A stretch of 60,693 nucleotides of DNA, the filler included, from Globobulimina sp. (Eukaryota): assembly GCA_003354225.1 (NCBI GenBank). It is 18 parts of 18 records of this genome, joined end to end, with 100 filler letters (N's around TTAATTAATTAA, not from the genome) between each part and the next. Parts side by side here need not be neighbours in the genome. Positions count along the whole stretch, not along the records: positions 27,029 to 30,306 come from PIVH01003224.1; 17 more parts are not named here. One strand, given 5' to 3'. The position numbers and the translations under genes are program-made. Positions 3,280-60,648 of the stretch are shown here, piece by piece. A model generated the notes under the pieces. The model was not told the origin of the DNA and made no database searches. It saw nothing but the letters and a program-made list of their open reading frames with translations. Position 1 is the stretch's first letter. Each line of letters opens with the position of its first letter.

Positions 3280-3379
3280 NNNNNNNNNNNNNNNNNNNNN
3301 NNNNNNNNNNNNNNNNNNNNNNNTTAATTAATTAANNNNNNNNNNNNNNNNNNNNNNNNNNNNNNNNNNNNNNNNNNNN
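3280..3379. other. Artificial 100-nt contig spacer (first of 17)
   Basis: N44-TTAATTAATTAA-N44 (six-frame stop linker). The others start at 6659, 10038, 13417, 16795, 20173, 23551, 26929, 30307, 33685, 37062, 40439, 43815, 47191, 50567, 53943 and 57319. Intervening contig lengths never increase, running from 3279 to 3275 bp. Confidence 0.99.
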
Positions 3380-6658: not shown

Positions 6659-6936
6659 NNNNNNNNNNNNNNNNNNNNNNNNNNNNNNNNNNNNNNNNNN
6701 NNTTAATTAATTAANNNNNNNNNNNNNNNNNNNNNNNNNNNNNNNNNNNNNNNNNNNNTATTATAGCTGGGGAATGGTTTGAATATCTATTTGAAATAAG
6801 TTGTATTATCACACTTTTATCCCGATATTATAACAAGTCTGTTATTGCAAAAGCATGTTTATCGGATTTAATTAGCTGCAATTTCCAACATTTAATAGCA
6901 AAGACAACATTAAATACAGTCGGATCATTTGGGTCA

Positions 6937-20272: not shown

Positions 20273-20810
20273 TGGTGGTTGGTGATGGTTATTTCGGGGC
20301 AAAATGGTGATGGTTATTTCGGGCAAAGTGGTGGTTGGTGATGGTTATTTCGGGGCAAAATGGTGATGGTTATTTCGGGGCAAAATGGTGATGGTTATTT
20401 CGGGCAAAGTGGTGATGGTTATTTCGTTGCATATTTAAAGTGACGACGAGAGAACGTCCATATGAGCTAGAGACAGCGTAAAAGGGAGTCACCGCGTTGA
20501 CTCACTTTCAAACTGGTGATGGTTATTTCGGGGCAAAGTGGTGGTTGGTGATGGTTATTTCGGGGCAAAATGGTGATGGTTTTTTCGGGGCCAAATTGGG
20601 GCTATTTCGGGGCAAAATGGTGGTCTTTTCGGGGCAGTTTGGTGGTTGGTGATGGCTCTTTCGGGGCAGTTTGGTGCAATTTGGCGGTTGGTGACTTCGG
20701 GGCATTAAGGTGGTTGGTGACGGTCATTTCGTGGCAGTTTGGTGGTGGATGTTTCGTGGCAGTTTCGTGATGGATATTTCGGGGCAAATTGGTGAGGGGT
20801 TTTTCGGTGC
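20273..20810. repeat. Tandem minisatellite, core TGGTGATGGTTATTTCGGGGCAAAA (~25 bp, optional TGGTGGT prefix)
   Basis: Near-identical units at 20273-20426, a unique ~86-bp interruption, then progressively degenerate units to about 20810. Confidence 0.95.
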
Positions 20811-20866: not shown

Positions 20867-22033
20867 ATGGCGTCGACACACCGTGCAGATGCAAGCCTAC
20901 ATACAGAGTGGTACAGTACTAGTTGGTTTAAGGCATACACTGCGGCACTGACCCTCAATGTATTAGGAACCAACAAGCCTGAGGAAATAATCGCCAACAT
21001 TAAGAAAGTGTGTCATGCCATACACTCCCTACCAAACAAAGGGTGTGTGGTGAACACCGAGGGATTCACAGTGCGCGAACAAATTGTTTTTTGGAATGAT
21101 AATGGATACAAAGACGTGAGACCTATTGAAGAGTTAATTAAGTTGGATTCATCAATGGTCCTTTGGAGTCTGTTTACCATCCATTTTAGTGCAACGGAAT
21201 CCCACGTAATTCCTTTTGTAATCAATAAACCATTTTGTCGCTGCTGGGATGTCGACGAGCGTTACACTCACCGTGAGAAGACGCAAATACTCCGTTTTTT
21301 ACGTAGTAGGATGAAGGGTATAAGAGTTGCGTGGTACCACCCAAAAGAAAACATGAACATTGCCGTGTTGGTTAACGGAAAACCACGCGGTAGTTGTTAC
21401 AGCTTGGCGGTTATCACGTTGTATGTCGCCCTTTTGATTTATAATGGGACACCATACTGGCAGCAAATTATCATTAAAGAGAGCGAGCCATTGACAACGC
21501 TGCTGTTTGGTCCGGTCGTTTGGCAGTACTGCGACAAGAATGAGGTGTTAAGAAAGGTTGACTGCGATCAGAAAGAGTTAACCGCCTCGTTACAAGGTCT
21601 ATTGGAAGGATTTCAGCGTCATTTTGCTGACTGGAGACGCCACGCTTTAGTACTTTTGTCAGAGATTGAACGACAACCGTTTTCCTTCCATTTTAAAGAA
21701 CCGGTGGATGAGGAAAAATATGGAATTACAGACTACTTCTCTGTGGTGAAAGAACCAATGGATTTGTCAACTTTGGCAATCAACACGTTATTGGGACAAC
21801 ATACGGAAATGGCGGAGTTTGTAAAAGGATTTCAATTAATTGAAAAGGCAGCAAGAACTTATAATGGGGCGCAGCATGTGGTTCAGCGACAAGCACAGGA
21901 AATGCAACAGTATTTCATGGCACGTTTTAGCATAGTCGTTGACTGCTGTGGTGATAAAACCATACAAAGCAAATGGGAACGCTTGAAACACGGTGGAGGT
22001 GCTGAAATTGCGAGGAAAAATGTGAAAAAGTGA
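20867..22033 (+). CDS. Intronless protein with a C-terminal bromodomain
   Basis: FHFKEPVD..YGITDYFSVVKEPMDLSTL..FQLI..AARTYN. The N-terminal domain is unassigned. Confidence 0.85.
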   Translation: MASTHRADASLHTEWYSTSWFKAYTAALTLNVLGTNKPEEIIANIKKVCHAIHSLPNKGCVVNTEGFTVREQIVFWNDNGYKDVRPIEELIKLDSSMVLWSLFTIHFSATESHVIPFVINKPFCRCWDVDERYTHREKTQILRFLRSRMKGIRVAWYHPKENMNIAVLVNGKPRGSCYSLAVITLYVALLIYNGTPYWQQIIIKESEPLTTLLFGPVVWQYCDKNEVLRKVDCDQKELTASLQGLLEGFQRHFADWRRHALVLLSEIERQPFSFHFKEPVDEEKYGITDYFSVVKEPMDLSTLAINTLLGQHTEMAEFVKGFQLIEKAARTYNGAQHVVQRQAQEMQQYFMARFSIVVDCCGDKTIQSKWERLKHGGGAEIARKNVKK

Positions 22034-26900: not shown

Positions 26901-27028
26901 CTATTTATATTTTAGCAGGTTAACAAATNNNNNNNNNNNNNNNNNNNNNNNNNNNNNNNNNNNNNNNNNNNNTTAATTAATTAANNNNNNNNNNNNNNNN
27001 NNNNNNNNNNNNNNNNNNNNNNNNNNNN

Positions 27029-27286
27029 TCACATTTTAATATTTATTTTAATTTTATTATTATTATTTTTATTATTTTATTTTATTATTTATTATAATAT
27101 TTTATTATTTTATCATTATCAGCAGGTATGGACAAATCGGCCGCCCTTAAGGGGCGGCCGATTTGTGCACGCCTCCGGCGTGCCCATACCTGCTGATACT
27201 GATAAAATAATAAAATATTATAATAAATAATAAAATAAAATAATAAAAATAATAATAATAAAATTAAAATAAATATTAAAATGTGA
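27029..27286. repeat. Y/T-shaped foldback: 103-bp AT-rich stem with two GC-rich hairpin ears
   Basis: 27029-27131 is the reverse complement of 27184-27286 with one mismatch. Ears: ACAAATCGGCCGCCC-TTAAG-GGGCGGCCGATTTGT (27132-27166) and GCACGCC-TCC-GGCGTGC (27167-27183). Confidence 0.95.
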
Positions 27287-27880
27287 TAATAATTAAATAA
27301 TAATAAAATAATAATAAAATTAAAATAAATATTAAAATGTGGTATTAATTAAATAATAATATAATAATAAAAATAATAATATAACAATAAAACAGTAATA
27401 AAATAATGATTAAATAATAACAAAACAATAAAATATTAAGAAAATAATAAAAATAATAATAAAAATCTGTTCAAAACATAAAAAATAATATACTGGAGTT
27501 AAAATGATTTAAAAATCAATACAAAAACATTAAAAAACATAAAACTTTACAGTGTTTTCAGCAAAATTCATTGGTTATTGGTCACCATGGATTAAAAATA
27601 ATAACTCTGTTGAAAAAAATAAACTCTTGTCTCTTTACTCCTCTGACATGTGGTGGTTAAAAGTTGATATGTTATGAGAAATAGGTTCTTCTTTCTGCCA
27701 TGTTCGATTGTAAAACTTCGTGTTTTTAAACTGTACTTTACTGTATTCTCATTCTGTCACTAAATTTGAATGTTTTTAGTCTACTTTTAATTCTTGACCA
27801 ATACGAGATGTTATCAGATAAAATTTTCAATTTAATACAATAAGACACATCATTAACCCAGTAACCTTCATGATTAATCA

Positions 27881-28562
27881 TTTTGCTTGATTTGAACTGA
27901 TCAGTTCATTAGCTTTCCAAAGATGTATTTCAACCTTACATTTTTAAAAGATAGATTTGTTTCATTAATTACCTGTATTAATTATCGATGGTTATATATT
28001 TTTTAATCAATAATTTTGTTGGATTTGAGCTGATCAGCTCTTTAGCTGTCCAATGATGTATTTCAAAGTTACATTTTTACAAGATGGAATTGTTTCACTA
28101 ATTACCTGTATTAATTATCGATGGTTATGAATTAATAATTAAAAAATTTGCCTTGAAATGAACTGTTCAGCTCATTAGCTGTGCAACGTTGTATTTCAAC
28201 GTTACATTTTTACAAGATAGAATTGTTTCACTAATTACTTCTATTAATTATCGATGGTTATGAATTAATAATTAATAATTTTGCTTGATTTCAACTGATC
28301 AGCTCATTAGCTGTCCAGCGATGTATTTCAACTTTACATTTTTTACAAGATGGAATTGTTTCAATAATTACCTAAATTAATTATTGATGGTTATGAATTT
28401 ATAATTTATAATTTTGCTTCATTTGAACTGACCAGCTCACTAACTGCAGAACGATGTATTTCAACCTAATGTTTTAAAAGATGGAATTGCTTAGTTAATT
28501 ACCTGTATTAATTATAGATGATTTTGAATTCATAATTAATAATTTAGTTTGATTTGAACTGG
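27881..28562. repeat. ~133-bp tandem repeat, 5 copies plus a partial
   Basis: Units start at about 27881, 28014, 28146, 28279, 28412 and 28543. A detached partial copy lies at about 29378-29463. Confidence 0.93.
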
Positions 28563-28975
28563 CATATGTCTTACAATCGATTTTTTGTAATGTTTTTATA
28601 GATACTGCTAAGCTATTATACTGGAATGAAAAGAATAATTGGTTTGATACTAGTGACCTTGAGACGGAAAAGGTCATGCAGTCTGGTCCTTCTTTATTAT
28701 TGCTAAATCATAAAAATGTTACTATATTACTTGATTGACACAAAAGTTGCTTGTAACAGAACCATCCTTGAATACAAATATGTCGCATGACAATCCCCTT
28801 ATTTATATGTTAATGGTAAAAATAAGCCAGTGTTTTTCAAAACGTCCAGCTATTATGAATATTCACTGCATGGTAATAATGGCCTAACACTTATTCTATG
28901 TGAAGGGTTTAGTGTCCCTGGCTTCATAATATATTAACTATCGATGGTTATTAAATGTTATGTTATTGTTTGATG

Positions 28976-29105
28976 GAACAATACATGTCAATCAACTATT
29001 GTTTGGTTGAACAATGCATGTCAATCAACTATTGTTACATTGAACAATACATGTCAATCAACTATTGTTTGGTTGAACAATGCATGTCAATCAACTATTG
29101 TTACA
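28976..29105. repeat. 33-bp tandem repeat x4 (66-bp higher-order dimer)
   Basis: GAACAAT(A/G)CATGTCAATCAACTATTGTT(TGG/ACA)TT in alternating variants. Confidence 0.93.
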
Positions 29106-29464
29106 CAACAATAATACAACAATCATCTATTGTTATGCTGAACATGCGTGACAACAGTTTGGTGTGGTCAACCAATTACAATTTTAGTAATAAAAGTGGG
29201 TAATTTTTACATATTTTTTCACGTTTTACATTTCGATCAAATGACTTCATTTCTTGGTTGCCATGACTACACAGCAGCAGTTTGGGACAGCCGACTTGGT
29301 GTGATTTTATTAACTTAGAACATAGAGAGTAGACCATCATCATGGCCATTTTTTCATCGCGATCGGGTAGGTGCCGAATGATGTATTTCAACCTTTCATT
29401 TTTTAAAACATGGAATTGTTTCCTTAATTAAATGTATTAATAATCGATGGTTATGAATTTATAA

Positions 29465-29822
29465 TATAAAAAGTTAAAAATAAAAAAAATATTCTCATAG
29501 AGAGGTTCGAACCACTCCCCGACCTTCGCCAATGCCGATAAACGTAAAATTATAAAAAGTTAAAAACTAAACAAAAAATTGTTCTCTTAGAGAGGTTCGA
29601 ACCACTCCGCGGCCTTCGCTGATGCCGAAAAGTATAATTATAAAAAGTTAAAAATAAAACAAAAATTTGTTCTCATAGAGAGGTTCGAACCACTCCGCGA
29701 CCTTCGCGGATGCCGAAAAGTAAAATTATAAAAAAAATAAAAATAAAACAAAAATTTGTTCTCATAGAGAGGTTCGAACCACTCCGCGACCTTCCGCGAT
29801 GCCGAAAAGTAAAATTATAAAA
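29465..29822. repeat. ~89-bp tandem repeat x4 containing GGTTCGAACC and a GC hairpin
   Basis: GGTTCGAACC at 29504, 29594, 29682 and 29771, each followed by a variant of TCCGCGA-CCT-TCGCGGA. Confidence 0.93.
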
Positions 29823-29844
29823 ATTTATTGTTTGATTTGAAAGC

Positions 29845-30306
29845 TCATACAGAAATACAAGTCCCAAATTGCTGATCAACTGCAACAACTGTATCGCTAA
29901 AAGCCTTCGAAAGCGCTTGGCCTTTCTGAACCAATTGCATTCTTGATGCTGCACTATCTGGAGCTTGTGCTAAGTCCTGCCAGGCGTTGAAATACTCATC
30001 CATCGATGCTGATAATGAGTATGAGTTCAGCTCAGAGATTGATGATTCAACTTTTAGAAGTTTCTGGTTTTGAGTGCTCCATCTGGATTCTTCGCCTTGA
30101 TCGAAACGAACCTGATTTTCAGCATTGTTATCAATAATTCTTGTTATCTGTTCAAGTTCCATTCCTGTCGGAATCATTCCTGGACTACCAGCCACAGGTG
30201 TGGAAGAAGTATAATCTGCCCTCTGACGGTGATAACCTTCTGTGTTCAGATTAGCGACATTTTGCCCAACAACAGATAAAGCACCTTGCTGTGCAACAAG
30301 ATTCTT
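29845..30306 (-). CDS. flgK: Bacterial flagellar hook-associated protein FlgK, N-terminal fragment truncated at both ends
   Basis: The frame is open from the contig end: QQGALSVVGQNVANLNTEGYHRQR..G...ITRI.D..LSASMDEYFNAWQDLAQAPDSAASR. It terminates after about 150 aa at the repeat array. Confidence 0.88.
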   Translation of the reverse strand, partial: KNLVAQQGALSVVGQNVANLNTEGYHRQRADYTSSTPVAGSPGMIPTGMELEQITRIIDNNAENQVRFDQGEESRWSTQNQKLLKVESSISELNSYSLSASMDEYFNAWQDLAQAPDSAASRMQLVQKGQALSKAFSDTVVAVDQQFGTCISV

Positions 30307-30760: not shown

Positions 30761-32818
30761 TTAATAGATTGGAATGTATTCAATCGGGAAGGAGCTGTTA
30801 TGAAACACCATTTTGCCACCAAAAAATGTCGACACAACATTTGTTTGTAAAATATCCACAACATTTGTGTCCTCATTAAATTGAAATAAATCCCTATCAA
30901 TCAATATAAAATCCGCCAACTTATTGGCTGTGATGGAACCAATAAACTCTTCTTGAAATGAAGCATACGCTGCATTGATAGTGTATGCTTTCAATGCCTC
31001 CATCATAGACACCTTTTCCTTTGGATACCAACCATCGGGCTCAGGATATCCCATCTTTGTTTTCCTAGTCACCGCCGCATAAATACCCAGAAATGGGTTT
31101 ACTTGACCAACCGCTGGGAAATCAGATCCAAACGTCAATTTCACATTGTTTTTCAACATTGATTTCCAAGCATACGCGCCTAGCATGCGATTGTGTTTAT
31201 TTTTATTTCCACATTTTAACCTTTTCTCTGCGAATTCCAAGTCAGACGTCGCATGCGCCGGTTGCATGTTGGCGACAATGGATAACTCATTAAAACGCAC
31301 CAAATCATGAATAGGCTCCACAATTTGGGCATGTTCAATCCTTAAACGTAAACCTGGAATATATTGCTTATCAATTTCATATTCTTTGATTAGTTTCTGA
31401 TACATATCCAAAGCGACACGGTTTGCTCTATCACCAATAGCATGCGTTGAGATTTGCCATCCGGCGGAATACCATTTTTTTATATCATTATAATAATCGT
31501 CAATACGATTATAAATCCATAAACCATCAGTTTCTATTCTGTCACAATACGGATCCAGCAATTTTGCGCCATATGAACCCAAAGCACCATCTAAGAATAA
31601 TTTAACACCGGGCACACTCAAACGATCTCCATACAGAACATATTTATTATAATCGCCTGGTTCATACAAATCCGACCGGAAGTTCTCATCATCATTGTCC
31701 GAGGAACCATGCACATAAACACTTATTTATTTATATTATAAAACGCACAAAAAATATTATTGCGGCAATATATGAAAACAAATGTACCTTAATCGTAAAG
31801 TAAATGAATCGCGCTCTTCATCAATAACGTATTTATACACATTTTCAATAATATCTTTCTGTTCGTCCATGTCATGGACACCAGTCAATCCGTAGCGGTT
31901 ACATTCTTTCATTGCACTGATTAGCATTTTGATATATTGCTTGTTTTTACTTTTATCTTTCTGCTGACCATAGTATGGATGGATATGTTTGGTAACTAAC
32001 CGCTTGGCGTTATCAATAAATAAACCCGTTACTTCTCCCAACGCATTCTTTACGACTTCGCCACCATTAATATCATCCACATTGGGAGGGAATGTGTGTT
32101 TGATTGAATTTAATGCCAAAGTGTTTACTAAAACAGCATGCAAATCGATCCTATATAAAACTAATTTGTATTCAGATAAATATTTATCTAAATCGAAGCG
32201 GGAAGGTTGGCCTTTTGCATTCCAATCGTTCCAACTGTTTTCATCAAAGCCCATTGCTTTTATCCATTCGCCTTTTTGGATGTTATGTTTGCTGATGAAT
32301 TCCTTGATAATTTGTATCGTATTTTCGAAGGATTGCGCTTGTGATATATCAATGGTGTCGGATGACAATGCTCCAAGAAACATAATATGAGCGTGCGAGT
32401 CAATTAAACCCGGCAATATCATGTATTTGGAGGCATTGATGGCACGAACTGTGTTATGTGGAATCTGTAGACATTTGTTGAACAATTTATCCTTATTCTG
32501 GCTGACATAGACAAATTTTGCTGTTGTGACATCGACACAGATAGCCTTGCAATTTGGCATGTTTTCATCCATTGTATATATGGCGCCATTATCATTGATA
32601 ATTATTAACAAATCATGTGGTTGGGATAAGGATGAATAATAATAATTATATGTAAAAAAGGCAGATAATAACAAAATACCGACAGAAAACAATGCAACAA
32701 TAATAATATTGTATGACGTCGCTGATACATTGCTTTTTACATTTGACTCATATTTGGAGGCTTTAGAGAAAGAACTCGGTTTGCTTGATTTAGTTGTCTT
32801 TTTTCTTTCTCTCAGCAT
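30761..32818 (-). CDS. Amidohydrolase family 3 (YtcJ/LAF3-like) with an N-terminal membrane anchor; intron 31722-31787
   Basis: PGLIDSHAH, GLTGVHD, KLFLDGALGS, HAIGDRA, RIEHAQ, GSDFP, YTINAAY and LADF motifs. Confidence 0.92.
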
Positions 32819-40538: not shown

Positions 40539-41107
40539 ATGTCTGGTGTCTGGCCATCAATGCCTGCGATTTCTAATGTTTTTGCATTTGCCAACGCCAT
40601 GTGTCCGTCCATTCGATTCAACCAAATGGGATTATCAGATGGCGGCAACCAACTTTTGTGTGGCAGTGTTCCGCCAAAATTATAATGATCCCAATCCCCA
40701 CCGAGTATCCATTTTCTTTTTGGTTGTGTTTTACAAAAATCTGAAACCCGTTTGGCAAATTCTGATTTTTTAGTTACATCTCGCAACTCGACACTTAATA
40801 ATCTCAGGCCGCCATCTAAAAAATGTAAATGAGAATCTGTAAAACCAGGAACCACCAACTTTCCGCTTGCATCTATAACTCGAGTGTTAGCATCACATTT
40901 TTCCAGTATTTCTTTAGAATTATTCACTTCTGAAATGAGATCGTTTTTTATTCCAATTGCATTCGTATTACTGTTGCTTTTATTGTTTACAAAATGCGGA
41001 CTCCAAATATGAGCATTAATTATTGCAACATTGAAGTTTTGTGATATTGCGGTTGAACTGAATCTTCTCAAAATGGATACAAATCGTCTTTCATTGCTTA
41101 AAAACAT
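40539..41107 (-). CDS. Second amidohydrolase family 3 (YtcJ/LAF3-like), 3'-partial, with a mitochondrial-type presequence
   Basis: VVPGFTDSHLH, WILGGDWD and RMDGHMALAN motifs; starts MFLSNERRFVSILRRFSST. Confidence 0.88.
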
Positions 41108-41245
41108 CAAGAATTACAATATCGATCTGCTGAACAATGCACCGCTGCAACCATTTTCAAACCATTGTCTTTTAGGAATGAACAAAGTTTTCCAGTCAGT
41201 TGAAAATATGTCATTTTAATTTAAAAGCAGTCAATCAACAAACAA

Positions 41246-54468: not shown

Positions 54469-55767
54469 ATGCTCCCACGACACCGCCTGCTGTCTAAAGC
54501 ATTTACAAAATCAACCTCATTACTACCCAAACAATCTCAACGCAGCTGCATATCCGGTGTAAATTCGCCATACTTCCAAATTGAACACGCCCCATGGTCA
54601 CCAGAACCAGTATTTCGCGACACTGCCAAGCATGATCCATTCCCCGTGTTTCGTGTCATGGACTGGGATGGCAATACCATCGACAAAAACTTCTCATTGC
54701 CCTTCACCGAAACAGAATTGATCCAAATGTATGCCAATATGAACTTAGTCACCACCTTTGACGAAACCTTTTACCGCTTGGCCCGTGCCGGCTATATCTC
54801 CTTTTATATGCAGAATAGCGGTGAAGAGGCGTTACAAGTCGGTTCTGCGGCCGCTTGGCAGCCCAAAGATGTCTTATTTTTCCAATATCGCGAGTTGGGC
54901 ACCTTTTTACAGCGCGGCTTCCCACTCCAACAATGTGCCGATGTCTGTTTCAGTAACAACAGCGACTACGCGAAGGGGCGGCAAATGCCCGTCCATTATG
55001 GCTCGAAAAAATTAAACTGTGTCACCGTATCGTCCACGTTGGCCACACAAATGCCGCAGGCCGCTGGTACCGGCTATGCAGTGAAGAGAAGTGGCGATGG
55101 CGATTCCTGCGTAGTGTGCTATTTTGGTGATGGTGCTGCCTCCGAAGGGGACGCCCACTCTGCATTTAATTTTAGCGCCACTACAGAATCGCCCGTGTTG
55201 TGGTTGTGTCGTAACAATGGCTATGCCATATCCACTCCCACGGCGGACCAATATCGCGGTGATGGCATCGCTGCGCGAGCCTATGGCTATGGAATGTACG
55301 CGAGTCGGTTTGATGGAAATGACTTATTTGCGAGCTACATCGCATGCAAACAAGCGCGCGAACTCTCCATCACTGAGTCGCGGCCCATCGTGCTGGAAGG
55401 AATGACGTATCGCGGCTCTCATCATTCGACCTCGGATGATAGTAAAACGTATCGAGGCGATAATGAGGAACATAAATGGAAAACGTACTATAATCCGATT
55501 CGGAGATTGAGGATATTTATGGAGAAGGAATTGGTTTGGAATGATAATTTGGAGAAAGAATTGTTGGAGGATATACAAATGAGAGTTGATGAGGTTGCTA
55601 GAATAGCTCAGAGGACGTTGAAGCCGCATTGGAAACACGTGATTACGGACACTTATGATGAGATGACACCCAATTTACAGAAACAAATGAATGAGTTAGA
55701 GAAACATCTTGAGGAATATGGACATAATGAATACTATAAATTACAACAATATTCTGACGAAATGTAA
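54469..55767 (+). CDS. BCKDHA: Branched-chain 2-oxoacid dehydrogenase E1 alpha subunit, mitochondrial
   Basis: Transit peptide, GYISFYM..GEEA, QYRE, KGRQMPVHYG, YFGDGAASEGD..CRNNGYAIST (TPP motif) and HHSTSDDS. Confidence 0.96.
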   Translation: MLPRHRLLSKAFTKSTSLLPKQSQRSCISGVNSPYFQIEHAPWSPEPVFRDTAKHDPFPVFRVMDWDGNTIDKNFSLPFTETELIQMYANMNLVTTFDETFYRLARAGYISFYMQNSGEEALQVGSAAAWQPKDVLFFQYRELGTFLQRGFPLQQCADVCFSNNSDYAKGRQMPVHYGSKKLNCVTVSSTLATQMPQAAGTGYAVKRSGDGDSCVVCYFGDGAASEGDAHSAFNFSATTESPVLWLCRNNGYAISTPTADQYRGDGIAARAYGYGMYASRFDGNDLFASYIACKQARELSITESRPIVLEGMTYRGSHHSTSDDSKTYRGDNEEHKWKTYYNPIRRLRIFMEKELVWNDNLEKELLEDIQMRVDEVARIAQRTLKPHWKHVITDTYDEMTPNLQKQMNELEKHLEEYGHNEYYKLQQYSDEM

Positions 55768-57318: not shown

Positions 57319-57418
57319 NNNNNNNNNNNNNNNNNNNNNNNNNNNNNNNNNNNNNNNNNNNNTTAATTAATTAANNNNNNNNNNNNNNNNNNNNNNNNNN
57401 NNNNNNNNNNNNNNNNNN

Positions 57419-58947: not shown

Positions 58948-60648
58948 TTATGAAAAACAGACAACAATGACAACCACTACAATATACATATTATTATTTT
59001 TTTGCTTTGTGTCACTTTCATTTGGACTGGGATAATTGGGATTTGAACTGGGATAATTGGTAGGATTTGAACTGGGATAATTGGTAGGATTTGAACTGGG
59101 ATAATTGGTAGGATTTGAACTCTGATAATTGGTTGGAATGTTGGTACTGTAATAATTGGTCGGATTTGAAGTTGGATAATTGGTAGGATTATGTGAATGA
59201 TTTGTAGGAGCTGAACTTGGTGCCGCTGTAAAACCAGACCCAATGTCAACCACTAATAAATTATTGCCCATTTCATTTGCTTCATCTCCTCTGTTATTCG
59301 TATCACCATATCCTAATTCACCATGATTATTCTCTCCCCAACACTTCACTGCATTACTGGTCGACAATGCGCAGGTATGACCATGTCCTGCTACAATCTG
59401 TATTGCGTTAAAACCAATTCCCAAATCAATCACTCTTAAACTGTCTCCCATTTCATTTGCTGCATCTCCTCTGTTATTCGTATAACCATATCCTAATTCA
59501 CCATAACCATTATACCCCCAACACTTCACTGCATTATTGGCTGACACTGCACAGTTATGATGATATCCTGCTACAATCTGTATTACATTAAAACCACTCC
59601 CCAAATCAATCACTCTTAAACTATCTCCCATTTCATTTGCTGCATTTCCTCTGTGCTTAGTATCACCATATCCTAATTGACCAAAGTCATTCCTTCCCCA
59701 ACACTTAACTGCATGGCTGGTCGACAATGCGCATGTGTGGGAAAATCCTGCTACAATCTGTGTTGCGTTAAAACCAATTCCCAAGTCAATCACTAATAAA
59801 TTATCTCCCATTTCATTTGCTCCATCTCCTCTGTTATTAGTATCACCATATCCTAATTCACCATAATTATTAAACCCCCAACACTTCACTGCATTATTGG
59901 CTGACACTGCACATGTTTGAAATTGTCCTGCTGCAATCTGTGTTGTGTTAAAACCAGTCCCCAAATCAATCACTAATAAATTATTGCCCATTTCGTTTGC
60001 TCCATCTCCTCTGTTATTCGTATCACCATATCCTAATTGACCATACATATTCCATCCCCAACACTTCACTGCGTAACTGGTCGACAATGCACATGTGTGA
60101 TGAGAGCCTGCTACAATCTGTATTGCGTTAAAACCAGTTCCCAAATCAATGTTTAATAAATTAGTGCCCATTTCCTTTGCTCCATCTCCTCTGTGCTTAG
60201 TATCACCATATCCTAATTGACCATATTCATTATACCCCCAACACTTCACTGCATTGCTGGTCGATAATGCGCATGTATGGAAATATCCTGCTACAATCTG
60301 TGTTGGTGTAAAAGCAGAGCCAATGTCAACCTCTAATAAATAAATACCCATTTCATTGCCTCCATCTCCTCTGTTATACCAATCACCATATCCTAATTGA
60401 CCCCGAGTATTCACTCCCCAACATTTCAATGCATGGCTGTTTGATAATGCACAGCTATGAGAACCGCCAGATGTAATATTTCCAGTTATACATTTTTTAA
60501 AACATAATCCAATGATAAACAGTAAAATGGTTTTAAATCCTTTGTCAACGACACAATCCGACAAACTGTCTCTTGCTCCAATCATAATATCAGAAAACAA
60601 CGATAAAATAAACGCAACTGATTCTTTTAATTCAGTTGTTTGTGTCAA
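58948..60648 (-). CDS. Cell-surface RCC1/BLIP-II repeat protein with a P/S/T/N stalk and C-terminal hydrophobic segment
   Basis: Seven 60-aa repeats (AG..HTCAL...VKCWG.N.YGQLGYGD), then PSSNPTNY repeats and MYIVVVVIVVCFS. The start is uncertain. Confidence 0.9.
   Translation of the reverse strand: MTQTTELKESVAFILSLFSDIMIGARDSLSDCVVDKGFKTILLFIIGLCFKKCITGNITSGGSHSCALSNSHALKCWGVNTRGQLGYGDWYNRGDGGNEMGIYLLEVDIGSAFTPTQIVAGYFHTCALSTSNAVKCWGYNEYGQLGYGDTKHRGDGAKEMGTNLLNIDLGTGFNAIQIVAGSHHTCALSTSYAVKCWGWNMYGQLGYGDTNNRGDGANEMGNNLLVIDLGTGFNTTQIAAGQFQTCAVSANNAVKCWGFNNYGELGYGDTNNRGDGANEMGDNLLVIDLGIGFNATQIVAGFSHTCALSTSHAVKCWGRNDFGQLGYGDTKHRGNAANEMGDSLRVIDLGSGFNVIQIVAGYHHNCAVSANNAVKCWGYNGYGELGYGYTNNRGDAANEMGDSLRVIDLGIGFNAIQIVAGHGHTCALSTSNAVKCWGENNHGELGYGDTNNRGDEANEMGNNLLVVDIGSGFTAAPSSAPTNHSHNPTNYPTSNPTNYYSTNIPTNYQSSNPTNYPSSNPTNYPSSNPTNYPSSNPNYPSPNESDTKQKNNNMYIVVVVIVVCFS
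59027..59192. repeat. 24-bp coding tandem repeat (PSSNPTNY)
   Basis: ACTGGGATAATTGGTAGGATTTGA units on the + strand. Confidence 0.85.

Follow-up and report, generated by a model that had tools for sequence, protein, structure and literature searches.

Parvoviral termini are Y- or T-shaped and carry two small internal palindromes; the genomes measure 4–6 kb, and coding starts within a few hundred bases of the end. In poxvirus and asfarvirus termini, a hairpin is followed by tandem repeats, and a GC-rich tip with two ears is not known from their hairpin loops. Fold-back elements have inverted repeats composed of tandem subrepeats, and the formation of the Tetrahymena rDNA palindrome is seeded at a short natural inverted repeat.

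In the yeast fold-back inverted duplications described in PMC10622511, natural inverted repeats of 3–15 bp lie at the centres, and the duplications form via a hairpin-capped intermediate. Among the mapped chimeras of multiple displacement amplification reported in PMC1855051, 406 of 475 (85%) were inverted, with priming at complementary stretches of 2–21 nt. Wrap-around at hairpin telomeres has been described for Borrelia contigs (PMC10353223), and mismatches in the flip/flop hairpins of vaccinia are functional according to PMC8956199.

Here, we analyse a palindrome in the draft assembly of the eukaryote Globobulimina sp. (GCA_003354225.1), which a first-pass annotation had taken for the end, or the palindromic centre, of an undescribed linear or extrachromosomal element. 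We find that it is most likely an ordinary AT-rich palindrome that was seeded by a natural three-way hairpin and lies at a contig break.

Structure of the palindrome

The window, that is, the whole stretch of 60,693 nucleotides that was analysed, is not one continuous DNA. It consists of 18 contigs of 3275–3279 bp each, chained in order of size, with 17 identical 100-base linkers between them (N44, a 12-base six-frame stop spacer and N44). The palindrome lies in the contig at 27029–30306 (GC 0.295), where 27029 is the first base after a linker, and it begins at base 1 of that contig. As 27029 directly follows the linker, the contig edge at which the palindrome had been placed is one in the literal sense, and the palindrome has no relation to the sequence that precedes it in the window. 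This is a caution for windows of chained contigs in general, which must not be read as continuous DNA. The palindrome and its left boundary are made up as follows:

26929–27028, no strand: artificial linker between contigs that are unrelated; what precedes 27029 is no neighbour of the palindrome
27029–27115, plus strand: outer left arm, 87 nt of A/T-rich low-complexity DNA from contig base 1, the exact complement of 27200–27286
27116, plus strand: stem mismatch, T versus C at 27199; the 16th pair and the first outside the 15-bp core stem
27117–27198, plus strand: GC-rich Y core of 82 nt, with a closing stem of 15 bp (27117–27131 and 27184–27198), ear 1 (27132–27166) and ear 2 (27167–27183)
27200–27286, plus strand: outer right arm, which runs on into the rest of the contig

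Positions 27029–27131 pair with 27184–27286 to form a stem of 103 bp, in which T at 27116 opposite C at 27199 is the sole mismatch. The stem closes on two ears that abut one another. Ear 1 has 15 bp (27132–27146 paired with 27152–27166) and a loop of 5 nt (27147–27151), and ear 2 has 7 bp (27167–27173 paired with 27177–27183) and a loop of 3 nt (27174–27176). In the dot-bracket fold, the three-way junction contains zero unpaired bases. The first-pass annotation had described this 103-bp stem with abutting ears of 15 bp and 7 bp, a gapless junction and one mismatch at 27116/27199, and all of these coordinates hold in the sequence and in the fold. The centre of the palindrome is asymmetric over 52 nt (27132–27183), and outward of the mismatch 87 of 87 bases are complementary, reaching contig base 1.

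Folded as single-stranded DNA, the 258 nt of the palindrome reach −122.2 kcal/mol, compared with −24.9 ± 3.5 kcal/mol for 200 dinucleotide-preserving shuffles (z = −27.8), none of which attains the same stability. The central 92 nt by themselves fold at −47.5 kcal/mol (z = −15.3). The structure is real and lies far beyond chance.

The arms are the longest inverted pair in a repeat search of the window, and no exact repeat in the 18 contigs, direct or inverted, is longer than the 87-nt arm, whereas the assembly passed through exact direct repeats of 54, 59 and 64 nt. Only one of the 36 contig ends, that of 27029–30306, carries a terminal palindrome. When the 18 contigs were searched for inverted repeats with blastn, all minus-strand HSPs (6 of 6) fell in the palindrome contig, and the other 17 contigs had none. 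No 20-mer is common to different contigs among the 18, and neither a partner contig nor the word size of the assembler can be recovered from them. A systematic assembler artefact was rejected on these two grounds, i.e., the single palindromic end among 36 and the lack of a 20-mer shared between contigs. The other end of the 27029–30306 contig has no palindrome, and this contig is therefore not a small replicon hairpinned at both ends.

Surrounding DNA and gene content

Beyond the palindrome, the contig contains four tandem arrays and a fragment of a bacterial-type gene:

27230–27452, plus strand: AT-rich tandem array, period 56, about 3.9 copies
27873–28561, plus strand: tandem array, period 133, 5.2 copies, with a short palindromic core in each unit
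28964–29105, plus strand: tandem array, period 33/66, 4.2 copies, with a 7-bp inverted repeat in the units
29465–29827, plus strand: tandem array, period 88, 4.1 copies, with a 10-bp palindrome per unit and without a tRNA or Rfam match
29845–30306, minus strand: 5' fragment of flgK (bacterial-type flagellar hook-associated protein), TIGR02492 E = 1.8e-35, profile positions 10–150 of 437

The first unit of the 56-bp AT-rich array and the right arm end at the same place, give or take 1 nt. The arms share subrepeats with this adjacent array, and periods of 12–33 occur within them (28–33 in the left arm). Partial units of the 133 type are found at 28930–28971 and 29368–29474, just ahead of the next two arrays, and the DNA between the arrays is unique. 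GC content is 0.055–0.11 across 27229–27528. The almost pure A/T surroundings and the blocks of tandem repeats after the hairpin, both pointed out in the first pass, are thus borne out.

Stop-free frames of at least 100 codons occupy 14% of the palindrome contig, compared with 59–100% of the other 17 contigs. There is no ORF of at least 120 aa in 27029–29844, and no Pfam family rises above chance at E ≤ 1 among the 10 small ORFs of the contig. The contig also lacks rRNA, tRNA, any other RNA family and mitochondrial genes, and the whole window contains no Rfam match at the gathering score. An RNA gene was considered for the lone contig match at E ≤ 1, a microRNA hairpin model, and dismissed as chance, as it scores 26.7 bits versus a gathering score of 82.

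The palindrome contig carries no gene for Rep/NS1, PolB, a resolvase or a capsid protein, and no replication, resolvase or viral hallmark gene is found among the 61 larger frames scanned in the window. This agrees with the earlier observation that the following 2.5 kb hold no replication gene, for which our ORF and Pfam scans also came out empty, and it leaves the idea of a linked replication, PolB or resolvase gene without a candidate in the contig or in the 61 frames. Further contigs with the ear motif, which had been envisaged as well, are absent from the window: with up to three mismatches allowed, the 23-mer of ear 1 finds only itself. The exact 23-mer has two matches in 185,579 prokaryotic genomes. 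Both are plain terminator hairpins with T-runs (in a Pseudomonas chromosome and in a Desulfuromonadales MAG), without a second ear and without a long stem, and were set aside. With 27029–29850 as the query, blastn (word 11) found nothing similar among 72,556 plasmid and 50,697 phage records. The poxvirus concatemer-resolution consensus matches the window 7 times, with 9.0 matches expected, and matches 27029–30306 0 times. An adapter or a published oligo was also rejected, as the 21-nt core of the ear is absent from the full-text literature searched.

Eukaryotic context

In two Pfam scans of the window, 17 of 29 and 10 of 32 frames gave matches, and the domains include bromodomain, SET, RCC1, XK-related, GH63, DAGAT, caspase, ART, ankyrin, VIT/VWA and tubulin. 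The GH63 and tubulin genes are split by short introns, with GT..AG ends read in GH63, and use the standard code. An alternative genetic code was considered for the split ORFs and rejected, as the breaks are short GT..AG introns. NCBIfam matches in 9 of 32 proteins (sulfatase, SDR, E1-alpha and others) had suggested a bacterial window, which was overturned by Pfam and homology. The ORF matched as 'E1-alpha' (BCKDHA-type) is a mitochondrial-type 2-oxoisovalerate dehydrogenase alpha subunit with 76% identity to a EukProt entry; among the 120 matches listed for it, every one that is named to an organism is an animal, at 45–54% identity. Accordingly, the palindrome contig is either part of a eukaryotic draft or a contaminant within it. 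It has no eukaryotic gene of its own, and its assignment to the eukaryote rests on its assembly neighbours and its repeat content.

Comparison with known systems

The locus resembles the yeast fold-back inverted duplications described in PMC10622511 in the 15-bp natural inverted repeat around an asymmetric 52-nt spacer at its centre, in the perfect complementarity outward and in the one-base irregularity at the edge of the seed repeat. It differs from the cases described in that only 103 bp of the second arm are visible and in that the spacer consists of two perfect hairpins.

Mammalian PATRRs and FB-type elements are likewise near-perfect AT-rich palindromes of a few hundred bp with arms of short tandem subrepeats, and are likewise cruciform-capable, hard to sequence and assembly-breaking. 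As in FB-type transposons and MITEs, the inverted repeats of the present locus consist of tandem subrepeats, and the right arm runs into the 56-bp array. Unlike PATRRs and FB-type elements, the locus has a GC-rich double hairpin at its centre and occurs in a single copy in the window. A mobile fold-back element finds no support in a second copy within the 59 kb of the window or in a transposase, and the left flank, where a target-site duplication would show, is absent from the contig.

Two adjacent GC-rich hairpins, islanded in AT-rich non-coding DNA, also make up the mitochondrial double-hairpin elements or GC clusters described in PMC5910586 and PMC4478555. Those elements lie in mitochondrial DNA in many copies, whereas the present contig has no mitochondrial marker, and the double hairpin occurs once in the window and is flanked by a long inverted repeat.

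The likeness to the 'rabbit ears' of parvoviruses, drawn in the first-pass annotation, is fair as far as geometry goes. Like the hairpins of parvoviruses, densoviruses and AAV, the locus has a Y/T junction, a long stem that closes on two small GC-rich internal palindromes, and a stem mismatch. Membership of the parvovirus/densovirus type fails on gene content: NS1/Rep (HUH + SF3 helicase) and capsid genes, which start close to the ends of such 4–6 kb genomes, are absent within 2.8 kb. Unlike parvoviral hairpins, it also has the context of a eukaryotic draft with a bacterial gene fragment, a stem of A/T repeat and tandem arrays behind it.

The hairpin telomeres of poxviruses and asfarvirus are matched in outline only. 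Shared with them are the blocks of tandem repeats next to the terminus (four arrays within 2.8 kb), which are of different kinds and alternate with unique sequence ahead of the first gene. The AT-rich stem with its one mismatch near the tip recalls their incompletely paired hairpins, but it ends in a GC-rich tip with two ears that is not known from these viruses. Further differences are the absence of the resolution motif from the contig and the lack of viral genes beyond the repeats. In telomeres of the resolvase type (Borrelia, N15, Agrobacterium), a perfect dyad runs through the tip. As the centre of the present palindrome is asymmetric over 52 nt, a telomere of this type is excluded.

With the chimeras of multiple displacement amplification described in PMC1855051, the locus shares an inverted junction at a complementary stretch within the priming range of 2–21 nt and perfect complementarity beyond it. 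In contrast to those chimeras, the mismatched base has been kept, the junction seems to be dominant in the assembly, and the case is alone in 18 contigs.

Origin of the palindrome

Three processes give a signature of this kind: the collapse of a natural inverted repeat, wrap-around of a hairpin end or palindrome centre, and a snap-back chimera. The weights that we give to them are judged and not measured. In all scenarios considered, we take the 82-nt Y core to be the natural seed of the palindrome, since self-priming from one ear cannot produce a Y. By our reasoning, simple self-priming of this kind would yield three hairpins and not two, and it was rejected.

The reading that we tentatively prefer is a natural AT-rich inverted repeat of the fold-back type in non-coding, minisatellite-rich eukaryotic DNA, with arms that collapsed in the assembly graph, and not a replicon terminus. 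On our reading of its anatomy, the core is natural, and the right flank has been copied next to it in inverted orientation, starting one base outside the core stem. The mismatch is the first position outside the 15-bp stem, which is where a copy primed from a short inverted repeat would begin. The seed would be the 82-nt GC-rich three-way junction element with its 15-bp stem. A strand switch or fold-back at this 15-bp inverted repeat, in the cell and during replication or break repair, may have copied the neighbouring AT-rich repeat in inverted orientation, which would leave 87 perfect bases beyond a one-base scar. In a short-read graph, the identical arms would merge into one path, and the contig would halt at the outer arm boundary. 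The position of the palindrome at base 1 would follow from this collapse, as the contig then ends at the outer limit of the arm. We infer both the in-vivo origin and graph collapse as the cause of the contig break. Such an element would need no function, and as non-B DNA it could extrude a cruciform or hairpin, stall polymerases and break assemblies.

If a plain de Bruijn assembler is assumed, the word size would lie between 65 and 87, because repeats of 54, 59 and 64 nt were assembled through and the arm of 87 nt is the longest exact repeat. With any word size from 65 to 87, a contig would be expected to break at 27029/27286 if an internal inverted repeat has its outer boundary at that point. 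The preferred reading also draws on the subrepeats that the arms share with the 56-bp array and the coincidence of the arm end with a unit boundary, as in fold-back elements, on the eukaryotic surroundings, on the absence of replication and viral genes, and on the lack of a palindrome at the other contig end.

Several points count against the preferred reading. As the left flank is missing, the internal position of the palindrome is something that we infer. In fast-evolving A/T DNA, a perfect match over 87 bases presupposes that the event was very recent, and this perfection would come free if the arms were the two strands of one hairpin-ended duplex. The number 87 is odd, and so it is a possible word size, with which wrap-around fits equally well. 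The truncated bacterial flgK on the same contig is a second oddity and could point to chimerism. Lastly, some viral and organellar ends likewise have a terminal hairpin with tandem-repeat blocks behind it.

An in-vitro origin is less probable than the collapsed natural repeat, and on the whole we hold it to be unlikely. During whole-genome amplification or library PCR, a nascent strand past the Y core would have folded on the 15-bp stem and copied itself. The left arm (27029–27116) would then exist only in the tube, and the true left flank would be different and lost from the assembly. Tiny eukaryotes are often sequenced following amplification. The combination of a short inverted repeat, one unpaired base and a perfect copy to the contig end is what self-priming one base past the stem would be expected to leave, and the 15-nt stem falls inside the priming range of 2–21 nt reported in PMC1855051. 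The mismatch had been put forward as an argument against an amplification fold-back. It sits where a fold-back copy would begin, and it does not favour a natural terminus. Furthermore, AT-rich repeat DNA and a truncated bacterial gene are found together on this contig, a combination that could come from a library prone to chimeras. However, a natural flank at normal depth would branch the graph at 27116/27117, and the contig would be expected to start there and not 87 nt further outward. As it does not start at 27117, most reads would have to be chimeric, for example because the chimera arose early in amplification. A proofreading polymerase would excise the mismatched 3' base and leave no mismatch, and no inverted duplication is found in the other 17 contigs or at the other 35 contig ends. 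Hairpin self-priming, moreover, is argued in PMC1855051 not to be the main route to chimeras. Whether an ordinary palindrome or a snap-back artefact, the locus would be a worked example of a natural three-way hairpin that seeds a long inverted duplication and so mimics a viral terminus at a contig edge.

Somewhat less probable again is that the assembler wrapped around a covalently closed hairpin end, or around the centre of a large head-to-head palindrome, with the Y core as the tip and the arms as the two strands of the duplex. An extrachromosomal or viral linear element, a hairpin-capped broken chromosome and a linear replicon of a bacterial associate would be the candidates on this doubtful account. 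Perfect complementarity in fast-evolving A/T DNA would need no further assumptions, and both the confinement of the ears and the mismatch to the tip and the extension of the palindrome to contig base 1 would be explained. The perfect segment of 87 nt may equal an odd de Bruijn word size. Four kinds of tandem repeat fill the following 2.8 kb in non-coding blocks, and the first gene points toward the end, a layout that resembles the termini of poxviruses and asfarvirus. Precedents exist in the Borrelia contigs (PMC10353223) for the wrap-around and in the flip/flop hairpins of vaccinia (PMC8956199) for functional mismatches. On the other hand, neither the contig nor the frames scanned in the rest of the window contain a replication, resolvase or viral gene, and the remaining contigs are of cellular type and have introns. 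Telomeres made by a resolvase have tips that are perfect dyads, with which an asymmetric centre of 52 nt is incompatible, and the counts of the poxvirus consensus given above, at 7 against 9.0 expected in the window and 0 in the contig, show no enrichment. The ear motif has no relative in the 185,579 prokaryotic genomes, the 2.8-kb region has no phage or plasmid match with blastn, and the other end of the contig has no palindrome. Wrap-around of a longer palindrome would in addition place the contig start at 27029 only if the word size were exactly 87 or the contig had stopped there by chance. All consequences of a replicon terminus that the sequence allowed us to examine came out negative. 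The end or palindromic centre of a linear element, as first proposed, is a less likely reading without positive support, and the sequence alone does not show the locus to be the end of a linear replicon.

We give still less weight to a more specific form of this idea, in which an undescribed extrachromosomal linear DNA, carried by the eukaryote or by an associate, would have the Y core as its covalently closed tip or as the centre of a dimer junction (the DNA being virus-like, organellar, or a bacterial replicon with a flgK remnant). Such a DNA would combine a parvovirus-like two-eared hairpin with subterminal arrays like those of poxviruses and asfarvirus, and would rely on hairpin priming or transfer without a parvoviral gene nearby; the assembler would have wrapped the tip for one 87-nt word. 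A true hairpin-capped end would represent a new kind of linear-DNA terminus outside the Parvoviridae, with two ears, an AT-rich stem and subterminal arrays.

Finally, the reading as an ITR, the terminal hairpin with which a parvovirus or densovirus, whether free or endogenised, carries out rolling-hairpin replication, has in its favour the three-way junction, the two small GC-rich internal palindromes and the stem mismatch, and is close to refuted by the 2.8 kb past the hairpin without an ORF of at least 120 aa or a Pfam match at E ≤ 1 beyond chance, by a stem of at least 103 bp of A/T repeat that leads into four tandem arrays, and by a bacterial flgK fragment as the only gene on the contig.

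The flgK fragment

The flgK frame is open to the contig end and has its stop codon at 29845–29847, so that about 150 N-terminal residues are encoded. Homology to FlgK covers residues ~12–155 and ends at ~29866, and the cut-off point lies ~40 bp from the 88-bp array. When four full-length relatives were searched against the contig with tblastn, only residues ~12–155 were matched, so that the contig lacks at least 300 further residues of FlgK. The relatives of the fragment are mostly full-length proteins, and a size-restricted search found none of similar length. A word-indexed search with the fragment found 9 relatives of 511–703 aa at no more than 35% identity, and an exhaustive search found 5687 relatives at E ≤ 0.001, the top match having 46% identity; the best full-length relative (469 aa) has 45% identity. 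The abrupt end of this bacterial gene means that the contig could be chimeric. The GC3 of the flgK fragment is 0.31, which is inside the range of the other ORFs (0.20–0.51).

Ear 1 and the tandem arrays of the hairpin contig

An exact copy of a 23-nt sequence from ear 1, a GC-rich hairpin at 27132-27166 in the palindrome that opens the hairpin contig (27029-30306), occurs on the opposite strand in two prokaryotic loci, L001 (5001-5023) and L002 (1097-1119), from a Pseudomonas chromosome and a Desulfuromonadales MAG. In both loci, the matches are the stem-loops of ordinary T-run terminators. Ear 1 thus resembles an intrinsic terminator of bacteria, a likeness that we take as coincidence.

Among the features that follow the palindrome are three different tandem arrays and a gene fragment:

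Features of the hairpin contig downstream of the palindrome
27873-28561: tandem array, period 133, short palindrome in each unit
28964-29105: tandem array, period 33/66, short palindrome in each unit
29465-29827: tandem array, period 88, short palindrome in each unit
29845-30306, minus strand: 5' part of a bacterial-type flgK gene, covering only residues about 12-155

Partial 133-bp units (28930-28971 and 29368-29474) lie one ahead of each of the last two arrays, which suggests that the arrays have a modular build.

The flgK fragment lies on a contig within a eukaryotic assembly. Its best identity among 1.84 billion representative proteins was at most 46%, and its GC3 is similar to that of host ORFs. 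The fragment could stem from lateral transfer, from the remnant of a bacterial associate or from a chimeric join.

Composition of the window and its other contigs

The window consists of 18 unrelated contigs of 3279-3275 bp each, arranged by size and separated by linkers (3280-3379, 6659-6758 and so on to 57319-57418; N44, a 12-base stop spacer, N44). Any feature that spans a linker is artificial.

The contigs outside 27029-30306 show that the assembly is eukaryotic, not prokaryotic. Their domains include bromodomain, SET, RCC1, XK-related, GH63, DAGAT, tubulin, caspase and ART. Short introns are present, for example in the GH63 gene (GT..AG at about 511-609) and in a divergent tubulin gene (at about 23180); the BCKDHA-type ORF at 54469-55764 has no intron and shares 76% identity with a EukProt entry.

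Fragments of the Amidohydro_3 family were found on two separate contigs (30761-32818 and 40541-41113, both minus strand). The former comprises two ORFs, about 43 nt apart, that match profile positions 2-179 and 226-472 and are probably a single gene with a short intron. The Amidohydro_3 gene may be paralogous or allelic.

On another contig, a 25/32-bp G/T-rich tandem array (20273-20806) begins at base 1, upstream of a bromodomain ORF (20867-22030), and may mark another contig break caused by repeats. Elsewhere, 180/360-bp repeats (6.5 copies, 82% matches) and 24-bp repeats at 59020-60450 (minus strand) lie within a 566-aa RCC1-repeat ORF and are coding repeats.
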